A program made the translations under genes and the position numbers. Of a stretch of 64,000 nt of DNA, positions 4,940 through 36,249 are shown piece by piece. Numbering within the stretch: the first letter of the stretch is position 1; the number at the start of each line of letters is the position of its first letter. The notes under the pieces were generated by a model. The model was not told the origin of the DNA. It did not search any database and saw only the letters and a list, made by a program, of their open reading frames with translations. This DNA comes from Paraphysomonas bandaiensis (taxonomy: Eukaryota; Protista; Chrysophyceae): contig CBFFRP010000379.1 in the NCBI GenBank assembly GCA_965644295.1, positions 1-64,000 on the forward strand. Reading direction: 5' to 3'.

Positions 4940-5017
4940 TATAATATATGACTATATATTTTTTTTAATTATTTTATATTTTTACATATGTAATAATTGA
5001 AATAAATTATAGTATTT

Positions 5018-11028: not shown

Positions 11029-11430
11029 AAAAAAAAAGCAGGATGGTTTATACGCTCCGCTTGCAGGCAATGGGGTCCATTAAATCGAATCCCTAAAACC
11101 AATCCTATATTATAATTTTTAAAAAGTAATATAATTCATTTTTATATAACATTTTAATAATTCATTTTATATATATCTTTTTTATAATATATTATATATT
11201 AAGGGTTGAGGGTTTAGGGTAATTTTCAAGAGAAATAAAAATAGATAAAATAGTTATAATTATTATAATATGAGAAAGGGCATCAACCCTATACTCAACA
11301 CCAGCAGTAAAATAATATAGAGAGAATAGCAGTAGATTTTAAGATTGAAGTCCGCAGTAGCTACAAACGAGCTCGCCACCATACCTACTACACTATCTTA
11401 TCGTACCCACACAATACCCTCATCACTGTC
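11029..11430 (+). repeat. Left terminal inverted repeat
   Basis: Reverse complement of 28298-28699; identical by eye over the outer 388 bp, 2 mismatches in the inner 14 bp; the first two A may belong to the TSD. Confidence 0.97.
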
Positions 11431-11560
11431 TACTTATGTACTATGTCTTTAAGTCATATCGATATTTCAAAAAGGTTTAAAGAATTGATTTGTTGATTTC
11501 ATACCTAAAGTATTTCAACTTAAATAACACTTAAGTAATAAGCAATATAGATAATTATAA

Positions 11561-12097
11561 ATGAAAAACGAAATTGAACGTTGGACTGTCATACATGAAT
11601 ATGATGATTATGAAGTATCAAATCACGGAAGAGTTAAAAATAGCACAACTGGAAAGATGTTAAAGCTTGGAAAAAACAAACATGGATATCAGCTAGTCAG
11701 TTTAAACAAGAATGGAAATTACAAAACTTTGCGAGTTCATAGATTAGTTGCCGGTGCATTTTTGGACAATACACATAACAAGCCCTGTATTGATCACATT
11801 GATGGAGTTCGAGACAACAACAATTTATGTAATCTACGATACGCTTCATGTGCAGAGAACACTTACAATAAAAATGTCGTTGACAAAAGAAATACATCAG
11901 GATACACTGGCGTAAATTGGCATTCCTATGAAAAGAAATGGAAAGCACGAATAAAACATAAAGGAAATGATATAGAAATCGGACTGTATGATACAATCGA
12001 AGATGCTATTAAAGCAAGATGTAAAAAAGCAATTGAATTATTCGGAGACTTTGCAAACAAAGCAGACAAAGAATCTTATATGAAATATTTTATGTAA
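11561..12097 (+). CDS. NUMOD4-HNH-AP2 homing-type endonuclease
   Basis: YEVSNHGRVKN (NUMOD4); VHRLVA..F, IDHIDGVRDNNNLCNLR (HNH); NTSGYTGV.W...KWKARI....IGLY (AP2). Confidence 0.9.
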   Translation: MKNEIERWTVIHEYDDYEVSNHGRVKNSTTGKMLKLGKNKHGYQLVSLNKNGNYKTLRVHRLVAGAFLDNTHNKPCIDHIDGVRDNNNLCNLRYASCAENTYNKNVVDKRNTSGYTGVNWHSYEKKWKARIKHKGNDIEIGLYDTIEDAIKARCKKAIELFGDFANKADKESYMKYFM

Positions 12098-12258
12098 ACA
12101 AAGAAGGCAAGGAGCACAGTATAAGATCGCATCATTGCAATGAACGGACATTGCAACAGATTCAGTTTTAATATGAAATCTTCAATGGGCATTCTTGATA
12201 TCTTCAGTTTTTAGTGTTGTGTCCTGCATGTCAGCTTCAACTTCAAGAAAACGTCAGG

Positions 12259-12493
12259 TCACTCATTTGAGTGAAAACACCCCTCTGTTCACTGTTTTTG
12301 AGTGAAAAACACCCCTCTGTTCACTCATTTGGAGTGAAAAACACCTCTCTGTTCACTGTTTTTGAGTGAAAAACACCCCTCTGTTCACTGGTTTTGAGTG
12401 AAAAACACCCCTCTGTTCACTGGTTTTGAGTGAGGTGTCACTCATTTTGAGCGAAAACCCCCCCTGTTCACTGGTTTTGAGTGAAAAAACACC
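12259..12493. repeat. Tandem array of ~32-bp units with palindromic TCACT-N-GAGTGA core (8 cores)
   Basis: GAGTGA/GAGCGA cores at 12269, 12300, 12332, 12364, 12396, 12428, 12449, 12479. Confidence 0.9.
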
Positions 12494-12510
12494 AATTTCG
12501 AGAGAATAAA

Positions 12511-12699
12511 TTAAACGAACTTTAGGCCGTTGATTTTATTGTTCGCCTTTTTTCGTGCTCCGTTTACCTTCTTGTTGACTTTACTCTGAGCGCCACTGAC
12601 CTTCTTGTTCAGTTTCTTCTGGGCGCCGCTAACCTTCTTGTTAAGTTTATTCTGAGCGCCTGTAATCTTCTTATTGAATTTTGTTTTCAATCTGTCCAT
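12511..12699 (-). CDS. Small very basic repeat protein, putative DNA-condensing core protein
   Basis: 62 aa of 11-residue repeats K(L/V)NKKVSGAQK; function inferred from composition. Confidence 0.6.
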   Translation of the reverse strand: MDRLKTKFNKKITGAQNKLNKKVSGAQKKLNKKVSGAQSKVNKKVNGARKKANNKINGLKFV

Positions 12700-12743
12700 A
12701 GTAATAATATACCTATATATATTTTTCTCACGGAATATATATA

Positions 12744-13697
12744 ATGAAACCATTTTATACAGATGAAACATTCACGTATGTTGTCACCACAGCGAATAAA
12801 ACATCAGGAGATAATGCTTCATGCGAGATACCCATGCTCGCCTTGCTACCTTCAGATGTAGAATACTTTATATGTGTCCCCTTGTACTTTCAGTCCACAA
12901 GTAATTTGTTCTCTATTCCTTCGTCATCGGCTGTAATACTGGAGGCCAAAGACTTTGTAGAGATTGGATGTTCAACACACAAGACATCATCATTCAAAGC
13001 AGTAACTCCACCATTATTCGGAAGTGATGGAGGTTTGCATCGTTTATCCTTAGTCAATAATGTTAGTCAAATGAGGTATGTTGTTCGAAATTTCAACAAT
13101 AAAACCATTCAGTTTACATTTCGTAATGCTACAGGAATTGGTTTTCCCCAAAATGTTACAGCTCAAGGAGGGTGGGCTAAACAATGGATTTTACACCTGT
13201 CCTTAACACCTATAAGACAACACTCACCTTGTAAGTATATAATAAGCAATAAACATAAATCATTTACATACACCATTACAAATAAAGGTGCTGATGGTTC
13301 TGCAAATGATTGTTACATTACACTACCACCAATACATGACAATTATAATAGATACTTTGTTGATGTCATTGACTTTAGTGTAGATAATTCAACAATAGAC
13401 ACTGGTTCAGTAAGATACATAAACTTGTACTCTTTCAACTGGGCAGAAAATGGTTATGGAGGATATAACGATCAAACAGACAGAATGATTGTGTGCAGTC
13501 CATATATTAGAAATGCCAATGAACCTTCATTATATAGCGGAGATGGAGCAGTATTTATGATAAGCAATATGAAGCAATCTAGAAGAGTAAGGTTTAAAAT
13601 GTATGAAGCTACCCAAACAGAAGTAGTAAGCGGTGATATAGATAGCGGTGCAACAACTTATTACTACATAACATGTAAAATAACGCCTATTGACTAG
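12744..13697 (+). CDS. Protein with two tandem penton-like single-jelly-roll domains
   Basis: Internal repeat TFTYVVTTANKTSGDNASC / SFTYTITNKGADGSANDC, ending LSLTPI / CKITPI; motif order parallels the penton. Confidence 0.65.
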   Translation: MKPFYTDETFTYVVTTANKTSGDNASCEIPMLALLPSDVEYFICVPLYFQSTSNLFSIPSSSAVILEAKDFVEIGCSTHKTSSFKAVTPPLFGSDGGLHRLSLVNNVSQMRYVVRNFNNKTIQFTFRNATGIGFPQNVTAQGGWAKQWILHLSLTPIRQHSPCKYIISNKHKSFTYTITNKGADGSANDCYITLPPIHDNYNRYFVDVIDFSVDNSTIDTGSVRYINLYSFNWAENGYGGYNDQTDRMIVCSPYIRNANEPSLYSGDGAVFMISNMKQSRRVRFKMYEATQTEVVSGDIDSGATTYYYITCKITPID

Positions 13698-13722
13698 TAA
13701 TAATTTCTATTATAAATATATA

Positions 13723-14178
13723 ATGCAAAATACTCAAAGTTTTACGTATGTTATTTCATCGGCAAATGCTGCTTCAGGAGATGCTGAGAACTGTTACATA
13801 GATTTAGACCCATTGCCACAAAACTATGAATGGTATAGTGTTCAATGCACTGGATTTATTATGAATTGTGAATCATTAGCTGCTGGTCATCCTCAGTATG
13901 TTTTATTGGTAGCTGATGATTTGGCAGAAGATGGATATTATCAAGGATTTGATGGTAACCAATGTGTTTTATCATATCTTAATACAGATGACACTATATC
14001 ACAAATGACATCAGGAGAAGGGTCTTTGTTTAAAGTAAAGAACTTTAGACAAAAAAGAAGAATACATTTTAGTTTGTATGAACCAGATTTAACACCTATG
14101 GCTGGTGTTGTAGATGACTCTGCAACAACATATTGGTGCATATCATTGCTGTTTACACCTATTTTAGAGTTGAACTAA
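13723..14178 (+). CDS. Single penton-like domain protein (151 aa)
   Basis: SFTYVISSANAASGDAENC...YSVQ...RIHFSLYE...YWCISLLFTPI; paralog of both halves of the upstream gene. Confidence 0.65.
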   Translation: MQNTQSFTYVISSANAASGDAENCYIDLDPLPQNYEWYSVQCTGFIMNCESLAAGHPQYVLLVADDLAEDGYYQGFDGNQCVLSYLNTDDTISQMTSGEGSLFKVKNFRQKRRIHFSLYEPDLTPMAGVVDDSATTYWCISLLFTPILELN

Positions 14179-15780
14179 ATCAATATGCGTTTTCCAAAAT
14201 ATTGAACCTGATCCTACAGTTTGGAAATTATTATATGTATGAATTTCAAATGTCCAATTATCGGCAACATCTCCAACAGTAAATATAAGCGGTGCTAGAG
14301 TACAACCTACAGTACTAACACTTCCACGATTTGCATCCCATACACCCGGACCATAAAGAGTTGCTCTTTCTAGCGTTCCATTTTTCTTAACTAATACACG
14401 CGCGCGTATATCTGTCCATGATTTAATACCCATGATTTCAAAAGAAACTTGTAGCATGTATCGTCCTGTATACTGAATGTAACCTGATGAATCAATCATA
14501 TTTGAATCACCGCCTGTAGGTGTTGTACTCAATTCCGAAGATGTCATATAATGTCCACCGCTAGATGTTTGATAAGTTGTATTATAAGCCATGGATGAGA
14601 AATAAGTTACTGGATCATCAATTTCTTCCCAATAACAATTTTTTTTGCTAGTTAATGTATCCAAATCCGTTCTATCAGTAGCTGTGAACGCTGTTGTTTG
14701 AATGGTAGCATCTGGATATTCTACTTTTGTATAACAATTGATGTGATCACATCTTATTTCATCAATTGCGCCTCCTCCACCAGCTTTTAATAATGTATTG
14801 ACTGGGAAAGTCCATTCATTTGAACTTCTTGTTATATCATCTAATAATGTGCTATAATCAGAACTAAACGCTTTTGTTTGTTCGCTAGCATCTGAAAATT
14901 CTAGAACACCGCCCGATCCTGTGATTTCAAACCTACAATTACTTCCTGTCATTCTGAATGTGCTTCCTGTACCTGACACAGTATGTAATCCATAACTTTT
15001 ATTTAGTAATAGATCGCTTGAAATAGTTAAATCATCATATCCACCACCGGTATAAGACAAAGGTGTTATAGTTGATTCAATAGTTGCAATGTCAGATGTG
15101 TTTGTGGATATGTTTGATGTGTTAGTCGCTATATTGGTTGTATTGGTTGATATGTTAGATGTATTGGTTGATATGTTTGATGTGTTAGTCGCTATGTTAG
15201 ATGTATTGGTTGATATGTTGGTTGTGTTAGTAGATATATTTGATGTATTGGTTGCTATATTTGATTCGGCTGTTGAGAGGTCTACATCAATACTCGCAAT
15301 ATCTGCCGTGTTTGTTGCTATATCACTTGTATTGGTTGCTATGTTAGTTGCGTTTGTTGCTATATCACTTGTATTAGTGGCTATATTTGTGGTGTTTGTG
15401 GATATATTTGATGTATTGGTTGTAATATTGGTGGTGTTTGTGGATATATTTGATGTATTGGTTGCTATATTGGTGGTGTTTGTGGATATATTTGATGTAT
15501 TAGTTGATATGTTATTTGCATTCGTTGTAATTTGAGTTTGTGCGTTTGAAGTGAGTCCATCAATATAACTCAGTTCAACATCTGTTATAGTTGTGCCATT
15601 TGCGACAATACTAGCCCCCGATTGCATTGTTATATCAGTATCAATAATAATGTTACTCGTTTCAAGTGTGTCTAAATATATATTATCACTTGTTAAACTG
15701 CCAGTCGTTATTTCGTCCGCTTTTATTGTTTGTAATCCATTCAAAGATGGTATGTTTAATGATGTATAGCCATTATTCAT
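14164..15780 (-). CDS. Putative virion fibre/spike with trimeric coiled-coil stalk
   Basis: About 20 heptads IxTNTxN, LSYIDGLTSNAQTQI motif, two (F/Y)xDxxxQTxAF fibre-type motifs, beta-rich C-terminal head; adjacent to the MCP gene. Confidence 0.75.
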   Translation of the reverse strand: MNNGYTSLNIPSLNGLQTIKADEITTGSLTSDNIYLDTLETSNIIIDTDITMQSGASIVANGTTITDVELSYIDGLTSNAQTQITTNANNISTNTSNISTNTTNIATNTSNISTNTTNITTNTSNISTNTTNIATNTSDIATNATNIATNTSDIATNTADIASIDVDLSTAESNIATNTSNISTNTTNISTNTSNIATNTSNISTNTSNISTNTTNIATNTSNISTNTSDIATIESTITPLSYTGGGYDDLTISSDLLLNKSYGLHTVSGTGSTFRMTGSNCRFEITGSGGVLEFSDASEQTKAFSSDYSTLLDDITRSSNEWTFPVNTLLKAGGGGAIDEIRCDHINCYTKVEYPDATIQTTAFTATDRTDLDTLTSKKNCYWEEIDDPVTYFSSMAYNTTYQTSSGGHYMTSSELSTTPTGGDSNMIDSSGYIQYTGRYMLQVSFEIMGIKSWTDIRARVLVKKNGTLERATLYGPGVWDANRGSVSTVGCTLAPLIFTVGDVADNWTFEIHTYNNFQTVGSGSIFWKTHIDLVQL

Positions 15781-15828
15781 AATCGTTATACATTATAATT
15801 AGAAATTTAAATTAAGTATTTATTTATC

Positions 15829-17244
15829 TCAGAATTGAGTGTAGCAAACCCCGGCCTCGCACACCATAACAGCGTCATACATAGCGTAAGTATCAAATCT
15901 GACGGATGGAGTTGATGAATTAGCGTTATACGTACAGTGCCAGAACACATCATCATTAGAAGTATTATATCCTGAGTAGATAGAATCTTTATCAGCATTT
16001 GAATATGTTTCAAGATCCATACCAACAAAGAAAGCCTCAGAACTGGCGGTATCATCTACATAATTCTCTGTTTCAGCATTAACCGTAGGGACATCAACAT
16101 CATAATCTCCTAAATCAATATTTGGTTCGTGATTGATATCTGACACGCTACCTATAGCCTTTATAGCTTCAATGAAAAACTCAGGGACAGTCTCAGGAGC
16201 TTTTGATGGTACAACCTTAGAGCCCAATCTCAGCGTATAAGAAGCAAGATTATAGTGACAAGAACCCATAGGGAAATAAGTAATAGAACCGTCGGCATTT
16301 TCTCTTTGAGTCATAAAAAGAGATTTCAAGCTGTTGAATTTAGCTGGCACAGGTATAGATACCTGGGTCGTTGCATTATTTAAAGTGGCATTGTACACGT
16401 AGTTCCTCCATGCAGGAACCACCCACTCAAGTCTTCCACCAGGTGCGGAATTATTGATTATATTCATTGCTTCACTTCCAAGCTCCATAAATTGAGCAAT
16501 AAATTCACAGTTATTTACTTTAAAAGAGGACAATGCAAGTTCAGAACAAATGAATTTCGCTGGGCTAGAAACTAGTTGAAGTTCAAGTCTAAGAGGTGCG
16601 CTTGTCATTGCAAAGAGAGGAATGTATTTATCAGAAAGAGAACCAATAATAGATAAAAGGTTAATGGTGTAAGTTCTAGTAAGAGTATCTCCCGCGGCGG
16701 CGATATCTGCAAACTGTGTTGTTTGTCCATCATCAATAAGTCTTTCACCTGAGTTAATAGTAAAAACTTGGTTGGTTGCCCCTTGAATTTTTGTTAATAG
16801 AGTACCTGCATCTGCTACTGTTGAATCAGTCACATCACAAAAGGCATCTCTCGTTAACCCAGCCATAATGTTTAACTTACCTTTAGCAGAATCTCCAGAT
16901 TGTTGTAATGACATAAGCATGCCTACAAGATTTCCGTAATTATCAATATCTTCAAGTAATTGAGAACCATGATAAAGTCTAAGTCTTTGAATGCAACCGT
17001 GAGCTCCAGCTCTATCTAAACGGGCATAGGCATTTGCTCCAGCTCCATTAGTTACTGTCAAGTCAAATTTTAAGAGTGATTCAGACCCTGCCATGACGAG
17101 ATTCTGAGCTGTGGGGATATTAATGATGATAGTCTGCCCATCTAAGTAGTTTCCAACGCCATTCAATGGTTGTATGTGAGTGGAAAAGTTACGTGCGTAA
17201 GCGCTTGATCGCTTGTTAGTGTATAATAGGTTTTTAGGAATCAA
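15829..17244 (-). CDS. Major capsid protein (double jelly roll, PLV type); begins with TTG
   Basis: 471 aa, beta-rich; IPKNL...SAYARN...PLNG, IQRLRLYHGSQLLEDIDNYG, KYIPLFAM, FFVGMDLETY; clustered with penton and ATPase. Confidence 0.88.
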   Translation of the reverse strand: MIPKNLLYTNKRSSAYARNFSTHIQPLNGVGNYLDGQTIIINIPTAQNLVMAGSESLLKFDLTVTNGAGANAYARLDRAGAHGCIQRLRLYHGSQLLEDIDNYGNLVGMLMSLQQSGDSAKGKLNIMAGLTRDAFCDVTDSTVADAGTLLTKIQGATNQVFTINSGERLIDDGQTTQFADIAAAGDTLTRTYTINLLSIIGSLSDKYIPLFAMTSAPLRLELQLVSSPAKFICSELALSSFKVNNCEFIAQFMELGSEAMNIINNSAPGGRLEWVVPAWRNYVYNATLNNATTQVSIPVPAKFNSLKSLFMTQRENADGSITYFPMGSCHYNLASYTLRLGSKVVPSKAPETVPEFFIEAIKAIGSVSDINHEPNIDLGDYDVDVPTVNAETENYVDDTASSEAFFVGMDLETYSNADKDSIYSGYNTSNDDVFWHCTYNANSSTPSVRFDTYAMYDAVMVCEAGVCYTQF

Positions 17245-17304
17245 AATAGTTATATATTATATGGATAAAATTAATTATCTATATAATTTCAAAATAAATG
17301 CGTT

Positions 17305-17919
17305 TTATACTGTGTTGTTATTCATGTATTCTATATGTTTTTTGGTTTTAATATGCTTATGCATAGAATCTCTTCGCATAACTTGGCCACAACTACAGGT
17401 AACTTCTTGAGCACATCGTTTTTCATGTGGTTTTTTTTTATCTTTTCTGGGTTTTTTTATTCCCTTATGTTTGTTTGTTTTCAGATGCTTGTGAATAGAA
17501 TCTCTTCGCATTACAAGGCCACAAGTACAGGTAACTTCTTCAGCGCCACGTTTATTTTTGGCGTCCTTTCTGTCCTGTCTTTGATTTCTTATGCGTTCGT
17601 ATTCCTTTTTACTCTCCACGGTATGAACAACGTTTTTGATTTTATTAACACACTCATTATTTTGAATGTAGTACCCTTCTCTCGCATGTAATTCATCTTT
17701 ACTGTTACATGGATAGTTTTCTACTAAATAAATAGCACAGTCGGGTTCATCAAGTATTTTAAAGGATGAAACGAAGTGATCTTTACCTTTTTTGTAACCG
17801 TTATAATTGTTGCGATGCTTTGCTAATCTTCTGGCTAGCGTGGGTTCACATGTTGATCCGTAATAAGTTTTACCACCTCCAACAATCTTGTAAATTTTTC
17901 CTTTCTGATAATCAGGCAT
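17305..17919 (-). CDS. GIY-YIG endonuclease with two C-terminal Zn-finger-like repeats
   Basis: GKIYKI...YYGST...LARRLAKH...ELHAREGYYI; twice VTCxCGxVMRRDSxHKHxKTxKH. Confidence 0.85.
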   Translation of the reverse strand: MPDYQKGKIYKIVGGGKTYYGSTCEPTLARRLAKHRNNYNGYKKGKDHFVSSFKILDEPDCAIYLVENYPCNSKDELHAREGYYIQNNECVNKIKNVVHTVESKKEYERIRNQRQDRKDAKNKRGAEEVTCTCGLVMRRDSIHKHLKTNKHKGIKKPRKDKKKPHEKRCAQEVTCSCGQVMRRDSMHKHIKTKKHIEYMNNNTV

Positions 17920-17988
17920 ATTCTTTTATACTCTAATATATTCTTATATCTTAAAGTATTTTAAATTAAAAATTGACTTAAACATTAT

Positions 17989-18414
17989 TTATGCGAATCC
18001 ATCTTCATCTGCGGTTGCTTGTGCGATCTTTTTGCGCACATTGAACTTTTCGAGATCATTAGCATGTTTGTTGGCATGTTTAAGAGCTTTGTTACTTGCG
18101 TTCTTATATTTGTGTAAGGCCTTATCCCCTTTGTCAAGCCCTTTTCTAGCACCATGCAAAGCAGTCGATAATGCATTAACTCCGGGGACGGAACCAGCTC
18201 CAGCATCAACGGCGGCGCCTAGTACAGCGTCGGCTATATCTGCCCCTTTTCTAACGTTGTGCAAAACTTTTGACCCAGTATTAACTGCTTTACGGTTGAT
18301 CTTTTGTGCTTTTTGAAGTACGTCGTGAGATTTGTGCCCTAATTGATGAGCCTTCTTATCTATTTTGTGACCAAGTTTTCTAACACCTCGATCAAACTTC
18401 TTACCTAGTTTCAT
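17989..18414 (-). CDS. Basic protein with central Gly/Ala-rich segment, putative core protein
   Basis: LG(K/H)K repeats at the N-terminus, ADAVLGAAVDAGAGSVPG; lies in the structural gene cluster. Confidence 0.6.
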   Translation of the reverse strand: MKLGKKFDRGVRKLGHKIDKKAHQLGHKSHDVLQKAQKINRKAVNTGSKVLHNVRKGADIADAVLGAAVDAGAGSVPGVNALSTALHGARKGLDKGDKALHKYKNASNKALKHANKHANDLEKFNVRKKIAQATADEDGFA

Positions 18415-18438
18415 GTATATATATACACTATATTTTAA

Positions 18439-19173
18439 TTATTCTATATCAAGCTCTAGAGTTAAAGACCAATGAACTCCATTCAGATCAAGCACATCAT
18501 CATCTTGATCCGTGAGTTTAACATGTAAATTTGTTAAATTATGAACATTATAGATCATATTACGAACATTGTATATATTAGAGTAACTGATCATACTGTG
18601 ATGGGAAGAATCTACTGGAATACTGCATAATATATTACTTTTATTAGGTGTTGAATTGTTAATATTATTGATTTGAAAGTTATCAGATGTAACATAAACA
18701 TTTCTAATTGTGAATAAATTAATTGATATGGTACTTGTAAGCACTTGTGACGTTGACGAGTATGTTGTATCATCTGTAAAACCAAGAACTTCAAAACAAG
18801 TACTATTCGATTCAAATGTAAAATCATATGTACTATGTGAAAAGGTTAATTTGTTTGTTTTGCTGTTATATGTGATTGTTAAAGCGGGTATGCCAGTTGT
18901 AATTGCTGTTATCAAGGTATTAACGTTATAATTTCCTTCTGTAATAGTTAATGTTTGTACTCCACCACCATTGACTGTATATTTTAAAGTGTTATTAATT
19001 GAACTAATGTTATAAAATGAATAAGGTATCATCGCCGTTTGAACCGAACAAAATATCTTTCTATGTTTTGGTATGTTGATAACAGGTAAATGAAATATAC
19101 AATCTGATGTATTACCTGATATATATCTATTTGCACTTTTGCTATTTAAAAAGATGCACAATTTATCGCTCAT
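18439..19173 (-). CDS. Minor capsid protein (penton)
   Basis: IFLNSK...IPYSFYNI...EGNYN...LHVKLTDQD..LDLNGVHWSLTLEL, typical of PLV/Polinton pentons; next to the ATPase. Confidence 0.85.
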   Translation of the reverse strand: MSDKLCIFLNSKSANRYISGNTSDCIFHLPVINIPKHRKIFCSVQTAMIPYSFYNISSINNTLKYTVNGGGVQTLTITEGNYNVNTLITAITTGIPALTITYNSKTNKLTFSHSTYDFTFESNSTCFEVLGFTDDTTYSSTSQVLTSTISINLFTIRNVYVTSDNFQINNINNSTPNKSNILCSIPVDSSHHSMISYSNIYNVRNMIYNVHNLTNLHVKLTDQDDDVLDLNGVHWSLTLELDIE

Positions 19174-19507
19174 CTATATTATTACAATCATATATTTTTC
19201 TATTCATTAACTCCTCTAATGGGGAATCACTGATATTTTCAGCTATAGTTTCAAGTACTTGCTGCCATCCTGGAATGTGAAAACCTGTCCCATTGGGCAT
19301 ATTTTTTAATACATGACGTATACCTTGTCTTTTAAAAGAATCGTTGTAGTGTAACATATTTATATCTATAACTTCATCTAAGCGTTTTGGTCTGACCTGA
19401 TAATCAAGTTCATCCGGTAGTTCATCCTCTGAGTCGGATGATAAATAATACTGCGTTTCAGAATCATATTGCAATTCGGTTGAATCATTTTCTGTATCAC
19501 TGTTCAT
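19163..19507 (-). CDS. Acidic hypothetical protein
   Basis: 114-aa ORF with TATATA-ATG leader between the ATPase and penton. Confidence 0.65.
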   Translation of the reverse strand: MNSDTENDSTELQYDSETQYYLSSDSEDELPDELDYQVRPKRLDEVIDINMLHYNDSFKRQGIRHVLKNMPNGTGFHIPGWQQVLETIAENISDSPLEELMNRKIYDCNNIDER

Positions 19508-19526
19508 TATATATATTGATTAGATA

Positions 19527-20258
19527 TTAATTATTATCAATTGTCAAAGTATTAAAGTTTTTAAATAATTTGTTTTCAACTGTATCCACATCTAAATGAT
19601 TATAGTTTTTATCATAAACATAATCATAGAGCTCAACCGCATTATCTTTCGTCATATTTAAAAGCTCTGATGTCACAACTGTCCACTCTTGCTGATTTTT
19701 AGGTTTAAACAAAGACATGTTAGTTATTTGTTTTCTCAATGTTAAGGGAAATAAATTATATGATTGTAATGTAAACACAAAAGCAGTATTTAAATGCCTT
19801 GCTTTGATAAGCATTCTGTTTAAATGTTTAATTAAAACATTGTCTTTTAAATGATTTGCATAATCATCAATAATAACTAAATTATATTCTGGAGGTATGC
19901 CCTGCTCTATGTTACTTTCTTTTAAGTTTGATAATTCATCATATATTATATCCAATAATTCCGGTGTTAATTCATGATATACCTTTCCATGCTCACTAAA
20001 TGGATGCTTTTCTACACTGAGAAAGCTACTCTGTGGGGTGATTAAGTATATATTATCAAACTTGGCTCTGTAAAACCTAGATGACTTAAACATTGACAAT
20101 AATAAGCTTGTTTTTCCTGATCCACCAGATCCTATTAAAGTATATATAAACCCATTTCGATGTGGTAAGTGTTCATTGATGTTTGGTATATAGACGTCCA
20201 TAACTTCTTTAATAGGTGCTGTATTAGGCAAATCAGAAGGTGTTTCTGTTATCTTCAT
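19527..20258 (-). CDS. A32-like (FtsK/HerA) genome packaging ATPase
   Basis: Walker A GSGGSGKT, Walker B LVIIDD, ARH motif, LQSY, LRKQ. Confidence 0.92.
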   Translation of the reverse strand: MKITETPSDLPNTAPIKEVMDVYIPNINEHLPHRNGFIYTLIGSGGSGKTSLLLSMFKSSRFYRAKFDNIYLITPQSSFLSVEKHPFSEHGKVYHELTPELLDIIYDELSNLKESNIEQGIPPEYNLVIIDDYANHLKDNVLIKHLNRMLIKARHLNTAFVFTLQSYNLFPLTLRKQITNMSLFKPKNQQEWTVVTSELLNMTKDNAVELYDYVYDKNYNHLDVDTVENKLFKNFNTLTIDNN

Positions 20259-20316
20259 TATATTATGAGTAAATATATTAATATTTTGTAAATATTTTTT
20301 CTACGGTAACTATATA

Positions 20317-20871
20317 ATGGTAGAACCCGAAGAATATATAGAAGAATCAATTCCTTTGACAAAACCAAAAAGACAGGTCAAACAACTCGCAACCATACCA
20401 GAGGAGCCTGTTAACACACCCCAAGCACCTATTCAGTCCACTCCTGTAAAAAAGAAAAGAGTGATGACAAAGCCTAAAACACAAGCCCAACTACAAGCAT
20501 TTGAAAAGGCTAGACAAAAAAGAGCAGAGAATGCTGCAAAGAGGCAACAAGAAAAGGAATTACATTACGCTCAATTATTAGCCAAACATCAAGAAGAGCA
20601 ATCAGTAACAAAGACAGATCCCGAACCAAAACCAACACCAAGGCCTGTTGTTAAACGAGCTCCAAGGCAAAAAATAATATATGATGATTCAGAATCAGAT
20701 GAAGAGGTTATAGTTGTTAAAAGACCATCAAAAAGAAAACCAAAAAAGAAAACAATTGTGGTCGAATCATCAGAATCTGAATCAGAATCAGAAGATGAAC
20801 AAGTATCTATACAAAGACAACCCGCTCCACAAAGACATGTGACTTTTAATTCAGATGATTATTTCGCATAA
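20317..20871 (+). CDS. Hypothetical K/E/S-rich protein
   Basis: 184-aa ORF with TATATA-ATG leader; low complexity. Confidence 0.7.
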   Translation: MVEPEEYIEESIPLTKPKRQVKQLATIPEEPVNTPQAPIQSTPVKKKRVMTKPKTQAQLQAFEKARQKRAENAAKRQQEKELHYAQLLAKHQEEQSVTKTDPEPKPTPRPVVKRAPRQKIIYDDSESDEEVIVVKRPSKRKPKKKTIVVESSESESESEDEQVSIQRQPAPQRHVTFNSDDYFA

Positions 20872-20900
20872 TATTATCTTTCACTATTATATAAATACTA

Positions 20901-21965
20901 ATGAAGGAGAAGAAAATCTATTTATCTCTTGACGACTTACATAAACTTTATGGTATTGCACCAGATTTGATTTTAAAAAGAAAAAGAACAAAGAAAAAGC
21001 GCAAAGCTAAAGGCAAAAAGAAAACTAATTTTGGTACTGGTGTAAATAAGCAATTTGGGGGTGGTGGTGGTGGACCGGCCACTGCAGGTGTGGGTGCTGT
21101 ACATAGCTCAACTATTGACAGAAGAGAGATTGATATATTGCGAGGTCAGTTAAATGAAGCTAAAAACAACCCAAAGAATCCCGCCAATGAAGGTGTTTTG
21201 AGACTTGAAAATGTTCCAGAAGAGTTAAAAGAGACTTTCAAATTTGCAAAATTAGCTAATGACGGGTATGCGACTGGAAATATTAAAGTCTCTAAATCTC
21301 CAGCTGGAAATTTAATTATGGGTCCAACATCTCAAAAACAAAAAACTGCGCAACGTAGAAGAGCCATTGATATATCCAGCAAGGCAGATAATACCATCAA
21401 CCCCGCACCACCAATATCTACAAGCAATGATTTGATGTATACACAGCCATTAGAATTTAAATCAAATGATCAGGTGGAAGAATTAGACGATGGTGTTGAG
21501 GATTTGCCTTTAGAGCCACAAACTAAATTAGCTAAACCAAAAGGCAGAACTCAAAAACAGAAAGAAGCAACAAAACAATTAGTTCAACGTAGTAAAGACA
21601 AGAAAAGCGAAAGATTGAACAGAGAAGGTATGGAGGCAGAGGACTATGATGCCGATAAAGCAATTAGAGCCAAAAATCACTATGAAAAAAGACACATGAG
21701 ACAAGGATTAGAAGGCTTGTTTGTCAATATGGAACCCATTACCGGACAAATGAGTCGAACAAGACGAACAGAAATGAATATAAAACAAAAAGATGAAATA
21801 GAGGATGAGAACATGCATAAACTAAGAACAAAGCATTATGTCCGAACTCATAAAATCAAGCCACCAAGCACACCGGTACCAGCAGAATATTTTACTCCCA
21901 GAAAAGAAAATGAATTTGGCTGGGATGAATGGCGCAGTGATATCTCAGATGATGGTTTCGCTTAA
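20901..21965 (+). CDS. Hypothetical basic protein with K-rich tract and poly-Gly
   Basis: 354-aa intact ORF. Confidence 0.7.
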   Translation: MKEKKIYLSLDDLHKLYGIAPDLILKRKRTKKKRKAKGKKKTNFGTGVNKQFGGGGGGPATAGVGAVHSSTIDRREIDILRGQLNEAKNNPKNPANEGVLRLENVPEELKETFKFAKLANDGYATGNIKVSKSPAGNLIMGPTSQKQKTAQRRRAIDISSKADNTINPAPPISTSNDLMYTQPLEFKSNDQVEELDDGVEDLPLEPQTKLAKPKGRTQKQKEATKQLVQRSKDKKSERLNREGMEAEDYDADKAIRAKNHYEKRHMRQGLEGLFVNMEPITGQMSRTRRTEMNIKQKDEIEDENMHKLRTKHYVRTHKIKPPSTPVPAEYFTPRKENEFGWDEWRSDISDDGFA

Positions 21966-22004
21966 ATATAAAATGTTTAAATATTTTGTGTCACAATTAT
22001 ATAA

Positions 22005-22508
22005 ATGAGAAAAGTAGTTATTAAAGACAACGACAACAACAGACCTCTTGGAGTTGAAGAAACTAAAGAGATAGAAACTGAAGTTAAACGTGAATGTAGT
22101 TTTAGACATCGATCGATTCCAGACAAAAAACTATTTAATGTTGAGTTAAATGGACTTTCTGACAAAATTAAAGAAATTAAACTCGAAAATCAGCAGTACG
22201 AATTAGTTACTAAAATTCAATCTGTTTTAGATCTCTTTGATCCTGATTCAAATAAATACAATGAACAAATTCTATTATTTACTTGTCAAGCAGTTGAAAA
22301 TTTTATCACAAAACCAAAATCTGGTGATAGAAAACTGGCGGTTGTAGTTGAAGCAGTTAAAAAATATTTCAATAATGACATAGAATTGATTGTCAAAATG
22401 GTTGAGATATTACTACCACGAATTAAAAAAATGAATTTCATTAGACGTAATTGGAAAAGAGTAGCACGTTTTTTTTGCGGTCTGCAGCCGAGCGAGCCGT
22501 CGATATAG
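22005..22508 (+). CDS. Hypothetical protein; alternative -1 frame C-terminus to 22564
   Basis: 167-aa ORF; T8 run at 22469-22476. Confidence 0.7.
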   Translation: MRKVVIKDNDNNRPLGVEETKEIETEVKRECSFRHRSIPDKKLFNVELNGLSDKIKEIKLENQQYELVTKIQSVLDLFDPDSNKYNEQILLFTCQAVENFITKPKSGDRKLAVVVEAVKKYFNNDIELIVKMVEILLPRIKKMNFIRRNWKRVARFFCGLQPSEPSI

Positions 22509-22587
22509 CTATAACAAAAGCTTTTAAAATATTACTATTACCTATGATACTTGCTGTTTTATAATTTTATTGATTATTAATATAATA

Positions 22588-22854
22588 ATGAATAAAGAGA
22601 AACTTAAACAGTATAATCATGAATATTACTTAAAGAATAGAGACACGTTATTGATTCGAAATAGAATTTACTATTTCAATAATAAAGCTAAATGCAATGA
22701 GTATGCTAGAAACTATTATCATACTAAAATTAAAACACTTAAAGAGAACAATGAATATAAGAAATGGGTCCACACAAAAAAGGATACCAAAAGGAAAAAA
22801 CAGAAAAAATATAAAGTTATCGATGATGATACATTTATAATAAATTTTACTTAA
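22588..22854 (+). CDS. Hypothetical Y/K/N-rich helical protein
   Basis: YNHEYYLKNR-type repeats common in viral DNA-binding proteins. Confidence 0.55.
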   Translation: MNKEKLKQYNHEYYLKNRDTLLIRNRIYYFNNKAKCNEYARNYYHTKIKTLKENNEYKKWVHTKKDTKRKKQKKYKVIDDDTFIINFT

Positions 22855-23267
22855 AGATTTCTATGTTTACTTGAACATTTATGTTTAGTTTTTTCAGATT
22901 CTGGAAATGATTCTTGACATCCCCAACAATACATCAATGGATCAGTTTCACGAGAAGGTCGTTTACTGACCGCGCCTCTTGAACCAGCAGGGAGCTGATG
23001 CTTCAGCGAGTCGTCTTGTTTAGATTTCTTGATGTCTTCTAATTCTTGTTTTATTGCTTCTAATTCGCTTGAAACATTTAACTTTGCTTGTCTTCTCTCT
23101 GCCGTTGTCATGCATACTTTTGATGCTTGATGTTTCTTCATATTTTGATGCGATACTATTCTGCCACATTTTAAACATTCTTCTTTTTCAAATAGCTTTG
23201 CACATATTGCGCTTTTCTTTTCAGCGTAGTATTTTTTATTATACTCTCTTCTTGAATCTTTGTTCAT
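22851..23267 (-). CDS. Zn-finger hypothetical protein
   Basis: CLKCG...H....VC and CWGC...HKC; ACTTAA 36 nt upstream. Confidence 0.65.
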   Translation of the reverse strand: MNKDSRREYNKKYYAEKKSAICAKLFEKEECLKCGRIVSHQNMKKHQASKVCMTTAERRQAKLNVSSELEAIKQELEDIKKSKQDDSLKHQLPAGSRGAVSKRPSRETDPLMYCWGCQESFPESEKTKHKCSSKHRNL

Positions 23268-23357
23268 TATACTATACTCTTATATATTAATTTCTTTTTA
23301 AGTGTTTTTTACTAAATTAGTTTATTTATATTTTTTATATGTGTATTATATATCATT

Positions 23358-24404
23358 ATGAATGATCTTATTAAAAAATATGATATCGATGAAACATTAA
23401 CAAGACCAAGTAAACAAACCAAGAAGAAAAGATATAATCGAATAAAAGATAATATACCACTTAAAGAAAATTATAACTTTATGGCGGATGTGTTGCATTT
23501 ACCAAAAGATAAAAAAGGATATCAATATTTATTAGTTGTTGTTGATTTGGCAACTGATGAGTTTGATATGGAACCAATGAAAACAGAAAACTCTGATGAA
23601 ACTTTAAAAGCAATAAAGGTGATATTTCATCGTAATCATCTTAATAAACCGTACGCTTCTATTCGAACAGATGGCGGTGCATCATTTAAAAAAGGTTTTG
23701 CAAAATATTTGTACGACGAAAGTATATTACATAACGTTGCATTAGCGGGACGACATAAACAAATGTCGGCAGTGGAGAGTTTAAATAGAACATTAGGTAG
23801 ATTTTTCAATGGTTATATGAACAGCATTGAGTTAAAAACTGGAAAAATTTATAGAGAATGGACTGATATAGTTGATAGGCTAAGAATAGATTTGAATAAA
23901 CTAAGAAAAAAAGATGTGTCTGATATTGACTTGGCAACACATAAGTATCCTGTTCCAGACACAACCAAATCAAAACCTAAATATAATGTGGGTGACTTTG
24001 TGTATCGAAAATTAGACAAACCCAAAAATGCTTTAAATGAAACTATTAATTCTGATGTGTTCCGAGAAGGTGACTTCCGCTTTGACCCTATACCTGTACA
24101 AATTAAACAAATATTGTATTATCCTGGAAAAGTTACATACAGATATATGTTAAGTGGTATTAAAAATGCATCCTTTACAGAAGATGAACTAATGCCTGCA
24201 CCTGATGCCGAAGAAGAACAAGTTGAAATTAAAAAGATTCTTGATAAGCGATTTTTTGATGGCGAAAATCACTATCAAGTTTGGATGTATGGAGAGTTAA
24301 AAAAAGACGCGGGATGGTATGCTAAAAGTGATTTACTAAAAACTGTTGATAAAAAGTTATTAGATGATTTTGATAAAAGCATTAAGAAAAAGAAAAAACG
24401 TTAA
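23358..24404 (+). CDS. Retroviral-type (rve) DDE integrase with C-terminal chromodomain-like region
   Basis: ADVLHLP..YLLVVVD, IRTDGGASF, VESLNRTL (D,D,E); IKKILDKR...HYQVWMYG....GW. Confidence 0.92.
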   Translation: MNDLIKKYDIDETLTRPSKQTKKKRYNRIKDNIPLKENYNFMADVLHLPKDKKGYQYLLVVVDLATDEFDMEPMKTENSDETLKAIKVIFHRNHLNKPYASIRTDGGASFKKGFAKYLYDESILHNVALAGRHKQMSAVESLNRTLGRFFNGYMNSIELKTGKIYREWTDIVDRLRIDLNKLRKKDVSDIDLATHKYPVPDTTKSKPKYNVGDFVYRKLDKPKNALNETINSDVFREGDFRFDPIPVQIKQILYYPGKVTYRYMLSGIKNASFTEDELMPAPDAEEEQVEIKKILDKRFFDGENHYQVWMYGELKKDAGWYAKSDLLKTVDKKLLDDFDKSIKKKKKR

Positions 24405-25651
24405 CAACATTCTTCAATATGTGTTTTTATGTCCTTGTATTTAAGTCGCTCGTCACACTTTGGACATATATGATTGTATCCATTTACATGTCTCCATTCA
24501 ATCATACCCGAAGTTTTATCTTCTCGCAATAGATTGGGTATATCTAACTTTGGATCTTTCTTAAAAGTAACGTTATCGGTGTGAATACGAATGACGTTAT
24601 CAATATCCTTTAATGCTACTTCTGCTATTTTGTTTCTTGCATATGAAAGCAAAAACGGAAGTAGTCTAATATTGTATTTAAAAGGATTATTCGAATCTAA
24701 AAGTTTGTAATTCTCTTCATCGTTACTATGTGCTGACATATACTTATCCTGTACAATATAATCGCATTCTTTTGTATATCCCCAGTCATAACCTTCATTT
24801 TCTAATTCATCATATGATTTATATATCATATTGTACTGCGTTAACGTTCCCCATAGCGATGACATCAAATGTTTTACAAGTTTATTGTTGGGATACAACT
24901 TTTTTAACTGAATTAAACGATTGTACCATTCTCCAAATATTTCACTAGCTTTTACTAAATCTTTTGTTCTGTATATGTATGCGTTTGGTTTATCATCAAC
25001 AATTAACTCAATATTTACATCAAATTTCTTTTTGTATTTCATTGCATGTTTTAGAGATATATGAGTATATGTATGTTTTGGAGAAAATGAAAATATCTTT
25101 TTAAAGTTTTTATTATCAGATGTAATTTTAACTCTGTATAATCCGTATTTAAGTTTAGAACGTTTTTTTAACTTCTTTAAGTATTTTTCTTTTCCTTTCT
25201 TTGTTGGTATTATAAAATTATCATCTATCAATAAAGATGGATAAAATCCACTAAAATCGTATCCATATGAATTAAATACTCCCGGTTCGCAAAACTGTAA
25301 ACCTGCATTATAACAATCTTGAAAGTATCCATTTTCTATTTTTTTAATCCTGTCATGGTGTTCATATTTTCCTTTACAATATTGCATAAAGACACATTTA
25401 ACAGCGCCCAAGTGTGAATGAAATTTTTTGTAATCAATTGACAAGTTTTTAGTAAATCTCATCTCTCTACACCACGCCCTGAAATCTTTACCATACTGTT
25501 TTATTCCTTCATCTGATGCTTCGTATCCTTTAAACAATTGATACGCATATTCTAATTTCATACATTTCTCATGTGACATGTCTGAAAAGATGTAGTTCTT
25601 AACATCTAAAACTCTGTACATGGCACTATTCATTTTATAATAAAAATACAT
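24401..25651 (-). CDS. Short divergent family-B DNA polymerase lacking an exonuclease domain
   Basis: YNAG (YxGG/A), YDFSGFYPS (motif A), KHLMSSLWG (motif B), IHTDNV (motif C); C-terminal CPKC...H...C. Confidence 0.8.
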   Translation of the reverse strand: MYFYYKMNSAMYRVLDVKNYIFSDMSHEKCMKLEYAYQLFKGYEASDEGIKQYGKDFRAWCREMRFTKNLSIDYKKFHSHLGAVKCVFMQYCKGKYEHHDRIKKIENGYFQDCYNAGLQFCEPGVFNSYGYDFSGFYPSLLIDDNFIIPTKKGKEKYLKKLKKRSKLKYGLYRVKITSDNKNFKKIFSFSPKHTYTHISLKHAMKYKKKFDVNIELIVDDKPNAYIYRTKDLVKASEIFGEWYNRLIQLKKLYPNNKLVKHLMSSLWGTLTQYNMIYKSYDELENEGYDWGYTKECDYIVQDKYMSAHSNDEENYKLLDSNNPFKYNIRLLPFLLSYARNKIAEVALKDIDNVIRIHTDNVTFKKDPKLDIPNLLREDKTSGMIEWRHVNGYNHICPKCDERLKYKDIKTHIEECC

Positions 25652-25696
25652 TCTATATATTATTATTATATTAATTATTTTTTAAGTAGTTTTATA

Positions 25697-26050
25697 TTAA
25701 ACAAAATTATCCTCAATATCATCGGGTACAAAGGCAGTAATTTGCAATTGTGAGAACTTTGAAAACTTATCTGTGTCTTTGACTCTATTTGCATAATAAT
25801 CTTCTTCATCATCAACATTGAGGTCACTATAAAATCCTTTGAGTGTGCTCCATCTGGCTGCGTTTAAAGCGCGCACCATAAATAGTTTATTTGGATCTGA
25901 ATTTTGCAATCCTTGTACAATATCGCGTACATCTTGAGCAGAGATATTATTCTTTTTGTCATTTCTGTACAATTGTATTGTTCGTTCTTTTCCGTGCTTC
26001 ACAGTTTTCTCTTTGATAATCTTTTTAGTGTAAACAGACTTTTTTACCAT
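25697..26050 (-). CDS. Hypothetical protein in the replication module
   Basis: 117-aa ORF with ACTTAA 37 nt upstream. Confidence 0.65.
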   Translation of the reverse strand: MVKKSVYTKKIIKEKTVKHGKERTIQLYRNDKKNNISAQDVRDIVQGLQNSDPNKLFMVRALNAARWSTLKGFYSDLNVDDEEDYYANRVKDTDKFSKFSQLQITAFVPDDIEDNFV

Positions 26051-26092
26051 TATATATAACTAAACTATATATAATAATTTTTTAAGTACTTT

Positions 26093-27694
26093 TTAATTTA
26101 GTAAATCAATAATTTCATTTAATTCTTCTTTTTCAATTTTTTGTTGTTTAAATATATTTGTTTTAAATGTTTCGGGTATGGGTTCATCGTCATTGTCAGT
26201 ATCATATTCAAAAGTAACTTTCTTAACTTTGACCATCTTAGATTTCTTTAGTTTAACCTCTTCGGGTTCTCTTAATCTATACAATTCATCTTGAAGCTTT
26301 TTTATTTTTTCTTGTAATTTCATATAATCTTCTGCTCTAACATACTGTGCTTTATCATCTGATTTAATGTATTTTGGAACAGGTTCATTTACTTCTTCAA
26401 CACCGTCGGTTAGTGTATAATACTTCTCTGAGATCAAATAATTTTCTAATTCTTTAATATTGCATCGGTACGATCTGCCTTTTTTAGTATTTATTTTCTT
26501 TATGACTTCGTGCTGTTTCATTTCTAGTCCAAACTTTGTAATATTAGTTTTGTATTCAAAGCCATTTTGTTTTAGAAACAAACAATATCTATTGTAGAAG
26601 TCTGTTGCACTTGCTTTTAACTCTTCTGTTTTGTCTAATTCTTCTTGCATGACATTAACTAAAAATTGCGCTGTAATTGGAATATTTCTCTCTTGTAAGT
26701 CATTATAGTAAGATGTTATAGGTCTCTCTTTTTGAAATGACTTTACTTTAATTTTTCTATTCAATAAGTAATCATAAAATGCTCTGTCATATATTCCGCT
26801 GTTTATTTCGTCATGTAAATTGTTAAAATATTCTTCTGAATGCTTTTTCGATGGAATTTTTCTAGCAGTAAAACGCCTATCGTTATGTTCTATTTTAATG
26901 CTGTCAAAGTTGTTAGTTAAAACTACCCAATTTATATGATTTCTCTCGTGCCTTGTTTTTTCTTTCTTTATTCTAATTGAATTTATATCTCTTGTAATTG
27001 CGTTTTTAATTGCCTCAATTATTTCATCCGTCTTTGCTCTTTTACTTTCATTTAGTACGATTAAGCATTTGTGTGATATATCTTCATTAAAGTTCCCACC
27101 AATCAACATATCAATATGATCCTCATTTAAATAGTATTCTGGTCCCAATATTTTAATACCAAAATGATTTAACCCTGTATCTTTACCATCTCCTGGTTTA
27201 GATTGTAGTGACATTGAAACATCTGTTTTATTACCTGTCTGTACTATATATGCAAAATAATCCATCGCATAGTCAAACATTTCATCACCAAATAGGTACT
27301 GATAATGTTTAAACATTAAACTATTTTCAAATTTAAGATCAGTCTTTTTTAATTTTGAAGCTCTCCATCCGTTCCATTGATTGTATTGATCATTTGATAC
27401 TTCCTTACATGGCTCAAATACAATCTCTTTATATGTTCTTATACAAGGGTCTCGCATCCAATCGTTGACAAACATACAATGTTTTTTCTCAGACACTTCT
27501 GTTCCGTCCTTCTTACTTTTTGTTTCAATCTTTGTATAAAATAAGTTTTCATACAATGTTAACATTTCGTGCTTGGATCTCATTACAATCTTTTCATCAA
27601 CAATTTGAACGTATGTAACGGGGTTAATAACTTTGAAGTGAGTCTTTTCAAAAGTAACTTTCAATTCTTTGTAAGAAATTTCTTTACTTGTCAT
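26093..27694 (-). CDS. SF3 (D5-like) helicase/NTPase without an evident primase domain
   Basis: Walker A-like SKPGDGKDT, Walker B LIVLNE, motif C VVLTNN, NDRRF. Confidence 0.85.
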   Translation of the reverse strand: MTSKEISYKELKVTFEKTHFKVINPVTYVQIVDEKIVMRSKHEMLTLYENLFYTKIETKSKKDGTEVSEKKHCMFVNDWMRDPCIRTYKEIVFEPCKEVSNDQYNQWNGWRASKLKKTDLKFENSLMFKHYQYLFGDEMFDYAMDYFAYIVQTGNKTDVSMSLQSKPGDGKDTGLNHFGIKILGPEYYLNEDHIDMLIGGNFNEDISHKCLIVLNESKRAKTDEIIEAIKNAITRDINSIRIKKEKTRHERNHINWVVLTNNFDSIKIEHNDRRFTARKIPSKKHSEEYFNNLHDEINSGIYDRAFYDYLLNRKIKVKSFQKERPITSYYNDLQERNIPITAQFLVNVMQEELDKTEELKASATDFYNRYCLFLKQNGFEYKTNITKFGLEMKQHEVIKKINTKKGRSYRCNIKELENYLISEKYYTLTDGVEEVNEPVPKYIKSDDKAQYVRAEDYMKLQEKIKKLQDELYRLREPEEVKLKKSKMVKVKKVTFEYDTDNDDEPIPETFKTNIFKQQKIEKEELNEIIDLLN

Positions 27695-27750
27695 TTATAT
27701 ATAATACTATATATAAATATTTCCTTAAGTATTTTTAAATTAAATTAAAA

Positions 27751-28197
27751 TTAAAAACCAAATTTCATTTGTCGTTGTTTTGCACGATATGCTTCTTGAT
27801 ACTGTCTTATTTTTTCCTTATTCTTTTCTCTGTATTCTTTACTGGACGTAGCTATCCTTTCTTTATTCTTTTCTCTGTATTCTTTACTGGACGTAGCTAT
27901 CCTTTCTTTATTCTTTTCTCTGTATTCTTTACTGGACGTAGCTATCTTTTCTTTATTCTTTTCTCTGTATTCTTTACTTGATTCAGCTATCTTTTCTTTA
28001 TTTAGCTTTCTATACTGTTTATTGTAATCTTTCTTTTTCTCTTTATTTTCCCCAAACTTTTTGACAAGTGTCTCGCAATTTAGATGATCACTGTATACAA
28101 ACCAACATTTCATATTTGAATCCCACTGGGCGCCTAACAGTTTAGCATCATCTTTGAGTTCGAAATCGACATTAAGAAATATCCTGAAAGTTTTCAT
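27751..28197 (-). CDS. DUF5710-like domain protein with 15-aa tandem repeats
   Basis: FLNVDFELKDDAKLLGAQWD....WFV; repeats SKEYREKNKERIATS (45 bp). Confidence 0.75.
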   Translation of the reverse strand: MKTFRIFLNVDFELKDDAKLLGAQWDSNMKCWFVYSDHLNCETLVKKFGENKEKKKDYNKQYRKLNKEKIAESSKEYREKNKEKIATSSKEYREKNKERIATSSKEYREKNKERIATSSKEYREKNKEKIRQYQEAYRAKQRQMKFGF

Positions 28198-28297
28198 TTA
28201 CTTTATAATATTACTGTAGTGCCTTATTCTTAAGTAGTTTTAATATAAAAAATACTTTAAGTACATATTACCTGATGTCTGACCATGAAACATTTTC

Positions 28298-28699
28298 GAC
28301 AGTGATGACGCTATTGTGTGGGTACGATAAGATAGTGTAGTAGGTATGGTGGCGAGCTCGTTTGTAGCTACTGCGGACTTCAATCTTAAAATCTACTGCT
28401 ATTCTCTCTATATTATTTTACTGCTGGTGTTGAGTATAGGGTTGATGCCCTTTCTCATATTATAATAATTATAACTATTTTATCTATTTTTATTTCTCTT
28501 GAAAATTACCCTAAACCCTCAACCCTTAATATATAATATATTATAAAAAAGATATATATAAAATGAATTATTAAAATGTTATATAAAAATGAATTATATT
28601 ACTTTTTAAAAATTATAATATAGGATTGGTTTTAGGGATTCGATTTAATGGACCCCATTGCCTGCAAGCGGAGCGTATAAACCATCCTGCTTTTTTTTT
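28298..28699 (-). repeat. Right terminal inverted repeat
   Basis: Reverse complement of 11029-11430; followed by GCTGAA. Confidence 0.97.
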
Positions 28700-35625: not shown

Positions 35626-35745
35626 TACAGAGTAAGAAACTTCAAGTGTTAGGGAATAAATACTTTAACGAACCACATAACAATAAGACCTCATTAGATA
35701 CAAGAACTATCATGAATAGTATGTACAAAGAGTATACAGATTACA

Positions 35746-36149: not shown

Positions 36150-36249
36150 CATATAGGTTTGTTTGTATACTTCTAGTGTGCATTTTATTCTTTGCATAAA
36201 AATCTTTTAATTGCAATAGTTCTCATCCTCCGTTGCGTAGAAGTAAAAG

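Follow-up and report, generated by a model that had tools for sequence, protein, structure and literature searches.

A run of eight T residues near the 3′ end of a small gene raises the question of whether that gene yields one protein or two. The gene lies on the + strand of a 64,000-nt stretch of DNA from Paraphysomonas bandaiensis (the window). Its zero-frame ORF (22005..22508, 167 codons) encodes a short product of 167 aa, which is predicted to be all-helical and belongs to no known family; the C-terminus reads RFFCGLQPSEPSI, with the stop at 22508. Close to this end, the sequence CGT TTT TTT TGC (22467-22478) holds the T run (8 nt, 22469..22476, + strand) in such a phase that it includes an in-frame U_UUU_UUU heptamer, bearing out an earlier note on this DNA. 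From the run, the −1 frame continues as LRSAAERAVDIAITKAFKILLLPMILAVL to a stop (22475..22564, + strand); this tail of 29 codons plus stop specifies an amphipathic basic helix, followed by 11 uncharged residues with a central Pro. Fused to the short protein, the tail is predicted to give a product of ~186 aa. It also fills the gap to the next gene, as the earlier note had described: the tail ends at 22564, and the downstream ORF begins at 22570 (TTG) or 22588 (ATG).

Two proteins are the likely answer: the short one and, after a slip of one base, a longer form that is probably bound to membranes. The recoding site is real and family-wide in eukaryotic dsDNA viruses, and it is apparently undescribed: no published description of it was found, subscription papers and supplements (whose gene tables could mention the family) lying outside the scope of the search, and term searches of PMC6905037 and PMC8547959 gave nothing relevant.

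The T8 site in its viral element

By itself, a T8 run is not rare, since the window contains 19 eight-T matches on both strands (8.4 expected; 19 was reached by 3 of 100 shuffles). The gene is part of an AT-rich element of 17,671 bp (17.7 kb, 11029-28699). Its left terminal inverted repeat of 402 nt (11029..11430, + strand) is 100% complementary to the right one (28298..28699, − strand), and this identity makes a recent insertion likely; GCTG, found directly outside both ends, is likely the target-site duplication. The element genes all look intact. Among them are a likely major capsid protein (15829..17244, − strand; Pfam Capsid_N, E 0.005, below the cut-off; 374 relatives), a likely minor capsid protein labelled from its size and position (18439..19173, − strand; DUF5901, E 3.5e-6), an A32-type packaging ATPase (19527..20258, − strand; Pox_A32, E 3e-13), an rve-type integrase (23358..24404, + strand; rve, E 1e-6, just below the cut-off) and a primase-helicase-like protein (26093..27694, − strand; DUF5906, E 7e-12). 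The Capsid_N match recurs in 15 of 40 aligned capsid relatives (best E 1e-6); a single-sequence model of the capsid protein reached a pLDDT of 29, and PDB sequence searches gave no match. A further ORF (24401..25651, − strand) without Pfam or PDB match is a candidate protein-primed family B DNA polymerase, which we take to be likely from motifs recognized by eye. Also present are a 538-aa, fibre-like ORF with ~18 heptad repeats (21-nt period; 14164-15780, − strand) and a 32-nt tandem repeat array (12258-12488) between an HNH gene and the next ORF.

Integrated Polinton-like viruses measure 15-30 kb and have terminal inverted repeats (PMC10120064). With its A32 ATPase, rve integrase, primase-helicase and likely capsid, the element fits such a virus (PMC10120064). 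Polinton-like viruses are assigned by a published ATPase profile, and virophages (Maveriviricetes) by a virophage-type hexon, ATPase and cysteine protease (PMC9952930); among 20 window proteins, searches with Pfam, as distinct from dedicated virophage profiles, gave no match to a virophage capsid or protease. The flanks of the element carry eukaryotic genes with short introns, as recognized by eye. Elsewhere in the window, an AT-rich region with small repeats and a truncated-looking second DUF5901 gene (3037-5970; gene at 3037-3738) is likely the remnant of another related element. An ORF at 198-1205 without Pfam match resembles by eye the end of a retrotransposon pol gene (integrase C-terminus and chromodomain). 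Host DNA at 35641-36514 holds a tandem array with a unit of 8 nt and a 27-nt repeat that looks coding.

Many marine runs contain DNA nearly identical to the element, which points to a marine protist as the probable host; some of the element genes are covered by polyA RNA contigs. For the T run, the earlier note had suggested its length in accurate reads as a check: of 8 public runs examined, 6 bridge the site, all 8 of their contigs read T8 with no insertion or deletion, and T9 is absent from these contigs, which are assemblies that lose rare variants and one source run of which is possibly that of the window itself. No contig with an indel at the run was found in the run with a depth of ~1950 at the site, where rare variants would again be dropped. 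Two of the T8 contigs are polyA RNA, both from one sample; neither shows a 9-U transcript, minor variants being lost in contigs, and the coverage of RNA runs X17 and X19 lies outside the site. Both RNA contigs end at 22531, 33 nt before the tail stop, with no loose end. An allele bubble in DNA run X1 closes at the same position, so that the end may be a graph break; an alternative mRNA end near 22516-22531 is possible. A perfect palindrome, AAAAGCTTTT, occupies 22516-22531, within the tail codons and just before this stop point. In the public runs, two alleles differ in the overlap of the frames: among the rows listed, 7 of the 8 changed zero-frame codons are replacements, whereas 5 of the 7 changed −1-frame codons are silent.

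Conservation of the run and the tail

The window protein has 7 close relatives and belongs to a family of 190 clusters at 50% identity. DNA was available for 21 distinct loci, i.e. the window and 20 relatives of 22-80% identity from Polinton-like, virophage-like and giant-virus contigs; they fall into about four clades and are thus not independent. Duplicates (L077, L075, L107, L109, L248, L252, L270 and L271) were counted once, and false matches were dropped by profile search. In successive DNA-pattern scans, the true family members among the matches numbered 2/2, 9/101 (21 matches without flanks), 6/7, 0/1, 4/55 (all re-finds) and 5/5; a scan of prokaryote genomes gave none among 120 matches, and no relative came from scanning viral contigs with protein patterns. 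The neighbours of the gene in Polinton-like contexts are ATPase, primase-helicase and integrase. Virophage-like contigs with the gene are L054/L075, L078 and L082; a match to the Sputnik V18/19 penton lies beside it in L054 and L078. Giant-virus-type genes adjoin it in L003, and L003, L106 and L111 are labelled as giant-virus bins. In L034/L077, a single 17-kb contig has a copy of the gene at each end, apparently inside its terminal repeats.

A homopolymer of at least 8 bases is present at the site in all 21 loci (T8 in six, T9 in ten, T10 in three, and T7+A9 and T7+A8 in one each). T runs of at least 8 thus occur in 19/21 loci, compared to 2/24 other Phe-Phe clusters that served as control, and in all 12 loci that came from scans not requiring Phe codons at the site. 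Behind the run, a tail of 28-48 residues can be aligned in every locus. Twenty loci have it in the −1 frame; the exception, L054, has it in the +1 frame and may represent a mutant or a slip in the assembly. L078, a relative with 76% identity to L054, has its tail in −1. An in-frame fusion of gene and tail was found in none of the 21 loci, including relatives with T9 or T10, and a profile of the tails matched none of 196 stored proteins. The central proposal of the earlier note, a one-base shift that adds a hydrophobic tail, is supported by this retention of run and out-of-frame tail. Homologues had been named as its touchstone, both for the heptamer with its two frames and for a possible loss of slippery site and tail; the opposite of such a loss was found, each locus keeping heptamer and shifted tail.

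Codon changes in the tail point in the same direction. Relative to L001, silent changes in the window tail outnumber replacements by 14 codons to 2. Three pairs from the L004 clade show 6-8 silent and 0-4 replacement codons, and the zero-frame end is conserved there too. Across the clade of L004 and L317-L321, conservation follows the zero frame within the overlap and the −1 frame in the rest of the tail, and both products therefore look selected. These codon comparisons show purifying selection on the frame of the tail. Hydrophobicity alone proves little, since, in these AT-rich loci, 10 of the 81 other genes are by chance followed by a hydrophobic tail that reads out of frame across the stop. 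What exceeds chance in the sequences compared is the conservation of the run together with an alignable tail at the site, and neither T8 nor hydrophobicity alone.

The protein representatives carry a trace of the same run. Phe-Phe stands at the site in 114 of the 150 listed; of the others, 29 lack it and 7 are fragments. A short and variable end follows Phe-Phe (median 8 residues, maximum 24). Where there are exactly two Phe, the codon of the next residue can begin with T in 76/83 cases, compared to a background of 23%; within this set, the residue is S, C, Y, W or stop 43 times but I, V, M or A only 5 times. As read from the protein sequences, the T-starting codon after Phe-Phe is a signature at the DNA level, which could partly reflect selection on the first residue of the tail. 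Among the 143 full-length representatives, x-Phe-Leu forms the end of ~10, none of which is among the loci with DNA; this ending permits at most T6-T7. Nine others lack any such motif. As for other genes, avoidance of T runs of at least 8 is not demonstrable (2 observed, 2.5 expected), and A runs of at least 8 are tolerated: the 92 other genes at these loci contain 37 of them, where 62 were expected.

Polymerase, ribosome and other possible routes to the tail

The long product is very probably made. Slippage of RNA polymerase at the T8 run appears to be the best overall explanation, with about an even chance of being correct: the polymerase would add one extra U in a minority of transcripts, such that unslipped transcripts would give the main 167-residue protein and slipped ones a minor form of ~186 residues, whose basic and hydrophobic end probably binds membranes. 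The long form would thus be the minority product. Transcriptional slippage has been tied to the 8-9-bp hybrid (PMC4552492). In human apoB, an extra A in an A8 run leads to about a tenth of full-length product, IS elements use A8/A9 (PMC1088944), and indels made by yeast Pol II climb exponentially with run length (PMC5650487). On a run of hybrid length, conservation of length rather than phase is to be expected (PMC4552492, PMC1088944, PMC5650487).

Across the loci, it is indeed the run length, and not its codon phase, that selection appears to keep. Of the 19 loci with T runs, 12 have the first T at codon position 3, 5 at position 1 and 2 at position 2. L004 and L319, which belong to one clade, have lost the 5′ U of U_UUU_UUU and kept T8; in L003, L004 and L319, the sole heptamer is U_UUU_UUG. 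In L023 and L081, the in-phase U_UUU_UUU of the T7 run leads straight into a stop, and the tail can be reached only via the adjoining A9 or A8. L054/L075 has T9 and a tail in the +1 frame, which a slipping polymerase would reach by −1 or +2 bases. The conserved length, the varying phase and the three loci with only U_UUU_UUG favour the polymerase over the ribosome; provided that the long product is made, the polymerase has a slight edge as its source.

The same two products would arise by −1 ribosomal frameshifting at low efficiency without stimulator, i.e. by tandem slipping of tRNA-Phe (or tRNA-Lys) on U_UUU_UUN or A_AAA_AAN, an explanation that is somewhat less probable than polymerase slippage yet a substantial one. 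Ribosomal slipping fits too, because each of the 21 sites holds a formal X_XXY_YYZ heptamer in phase (16 U_UUU_UUU, 3 U_UUU_UUG only, 2 A_AAA_AAA/G). It is further in keeping with the −1 frame of 20/21 tails, with a zero-frame stop within 1-17 codons after the site, with the unedited T8 of the RNA contigs and with tailed phages, some of which shift functionally without stimulators (PMC5009743). The ~10 representatives ending in x-Phe-Leu, which leave no room for T8, would suit an HIV-type U_UUU_UUA and count against slippage by the polymerase. Against the ribosome stands the fact that the run is never shorter than 8, although the heptamer requires only 6-7 bases; dependence on a 6-base run (U_UUU_UUA/C) was found in 0/21 loci. 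The varying phase, the stop after the perfect heptamer in L023 and L081, and the +1 tail of L054 are likewise difficult to reconcile with it.

A stimulatory RNA structure finds no support either. The earlier note had pointed to the GC-rich patch, a would-be stimulator, and to RNA folding as a check: the 40 nt after the T run have a GC content of 57%, compared to 29% for the gene, and the patch is included in the overlap of both frames (22477..22508, + strand). ViennaRNA, which excludes pseudoknots, folds the downstream sequence no better than shuffles in the window (z 0.09 to 1.11) and without significance in any of 16 loci (z −1.5 to +1.6), and the site region has no Rfam match at threshold. 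Over these 16 loci, the GC content downstream of the run varies from 0.20 to 0.57 and is 20-30% in 10; the patch itself is not kept in the relatives. The overlap is thus tail-coding sequence rather than conserved RNA structure, and the patch is discarded as a stimulator.

At the level of the DNA, replication slippage might maintain a minority of T9 genomes that give the long form. Run lengths of 8 to 10 among relatives and the one locus in another frame are what such phase variation could leave behind, but none of the 21 loci is in frame, the tail is in none of the 196 stored proteins and no contig at a depth of ~1950 has an indel (rare variants being lost in contigs), which renders it very improbable. 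Hardly more credible, and if anything a little less so, is a mini-intron around the T run whose removal would lead into the tail, or a separate small ORF that would encode it. The window does offer GT (22468) and CAG (22487), a 20-nt segment whose excision gives the tail frame; yet 4/16 loci are without a suitable GT-AG pair and the others have none at a conserved position, the RNA contigs show no joint, codons inside the candidate intron vary silently in the −1 frame, and host introns measure ~55-110 nt by eye. For a separate ORF, an upstream ATG in the shifted frame exists in 0/16 loci, and 10/16 have none inside the tail. The survey of GT-AG pairs and ATG codons in 16 loci led to the rejection of both variants. 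A homopolymer sequencing error, the true T9 forming a single ORF, was the alternative raised at the outset. It can draw on the general fragility of homopolymers and on the error-prone consensus noted for endogenous viruses (PMC10120064). It is ruled out for practical purposes by the T8 in 8 contigs from 6 runs and by the out-of-frame state of all 21 loci, those with T9 and T10 included, in addition to the 0/196 stored proteins with the tail.

The predicted long form and its known counterparts

The AlphaFold2 model of the short form (pLDDT 89.6) has six helices, the last of which is basic and amphipathic and lies at the slip site. The short protein has no Pfam, PHROG, PDB or fold match (best PHROG E 0.025); in the fold search, the best hits had E 0.24 in a viral library and Z 5.5 in the PDB, values that do not establish a new fold, and an Atlas search with one homologue gave only unnamed viral clusters. 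Compared to this, the long form would gain another basic helix, followed by a hydrophobic end of 11 residues. In all 21 loci, the tail has a basic amphipathic stretch and, after Lys/Arg, 10-11 uncharged residues, mostly with Pro; its best 17-residue hydropathy is 1.4-2.2, the basic helix included. A C-terminal helix that spans the bilayer requires about 17-20 residues. Since the 11-residue end alone is too short for crossing the bilayer, a shallow or kinked anchor is likelier, by which the tail would dock the protein on a membrane. The long form is likely membrane-bound. One may guess that short copies form an oligomer which the anchored ones hold at a membrane during virion exit or lysis.

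A likeness of the window family to LL-H phage holins, suggested by a motif, is reflected in a weak profile match to the soluble part of PF09682. It covers 52 columns, with E-x8-G-x2-K in the register expected (HHalign score 21.0, E 0.004, probability 8.6%). The score exceeds that of all 20 shuffled or reversed controls (best 15.0); among 127 family members, none has a Pfam match to the LL-H holin family. The holins have an N-terminal membrane helix, in contrast to the C-terminal and conditional anchor of the window family, and no N-terminal hydrophobic segment is seen in the window protein.

By analogy, the site would work like the sGP/GP site of Ebolavirus or the slippage sites of dnaX and IS elements, or like lambda G/GT if the ribosome slips. 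Editing of Ebolavirus GP gives proportions of 70/25/5%, the unedited majority being soluble and the edited minority membrane-anchored (PMC5009743); vaccinia polymerase also edits this site, according to a title cited in PMC1088944. One gene, a homopolymer site, one added base and soluble plus anchored forms are common to both cases. Ebolavirus, however, is an RNA virus that uses its own polymerase on a 7-base run in the gene of a large glycoprotein, whereas the window has a small dsDNA virus, a T run on the sense strand, a 29-residue tail and editing that is predicted. Thermus thermophilus dnaX, Shigella spa13 and IS elements (A8/A9 or T9) share the homopolymer of hybrid length, the lack of a stimulator and the short and long products (PMC5009743, PMC1088944); they depend on bacterial RNA polymerase and genes, whereas the window would need the polymerase of the eukaryotic host or of a giant virus. 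In phage lambda, also a dsDNA virus, a small gene is shifted at a low level close to its end, a widely conserved event that yields a C-terminally extended minority form (gpG/gpGT; PMC5009743), but the shift is ribosomal and bacterial, the extension is a soluble domain and no sequence link exists (best PHROG E 0.025).

While RNA viruses and phages offer well-known examples of programmed recoding, hardly any are known from eukaryotic DNA viruses. The nearest cases found in the literature are the Mimivirus release factor (PMC3521657) and a hypothetical shift in adintovirus penton genes (PMC11071296). The former, R726, is an example of conserved recoding in giant viruses, but it involves a +1 shift at a stop codon and readthrough, is autoregulatory and has no homopolymer (PMC3521657). 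The latter is a −1 shift proposed for Polinton-type viruses that leads to an alternative C-terminus; it concerns another gene and is a software prediction termed hypothetical, for which the accessible text reports no family-wide test of conservation (PMC11071296). In the present case, a family of at least 190 clusters hides a second product that gene callers have missed, as seen from the tail's absence from the 196 stored proteins. If the slip is transcriptional, it would represent natural, selected polymerase slippage in eukaryotic cells. Speculatively, and with little likelihood for the reading as a whole, a gene shared by Polinton-like viruses, virophages and some giant viruses would obtain its membrane-anchored form via a stuttering multi-subunit RNA polymerase, as a DNA-virus counterpart of Ebola GP editing in which the transcriber sets the slip rate. 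As either host Pol II or the polymerase of a co-infecting giant virus may transcribe the gene, a change of transcriber could switch the slip rate and, with it, how much of a holin-like exit protein is made. The family also offers a candidate membrane-active protein for viruses that have no known way out of the cell.
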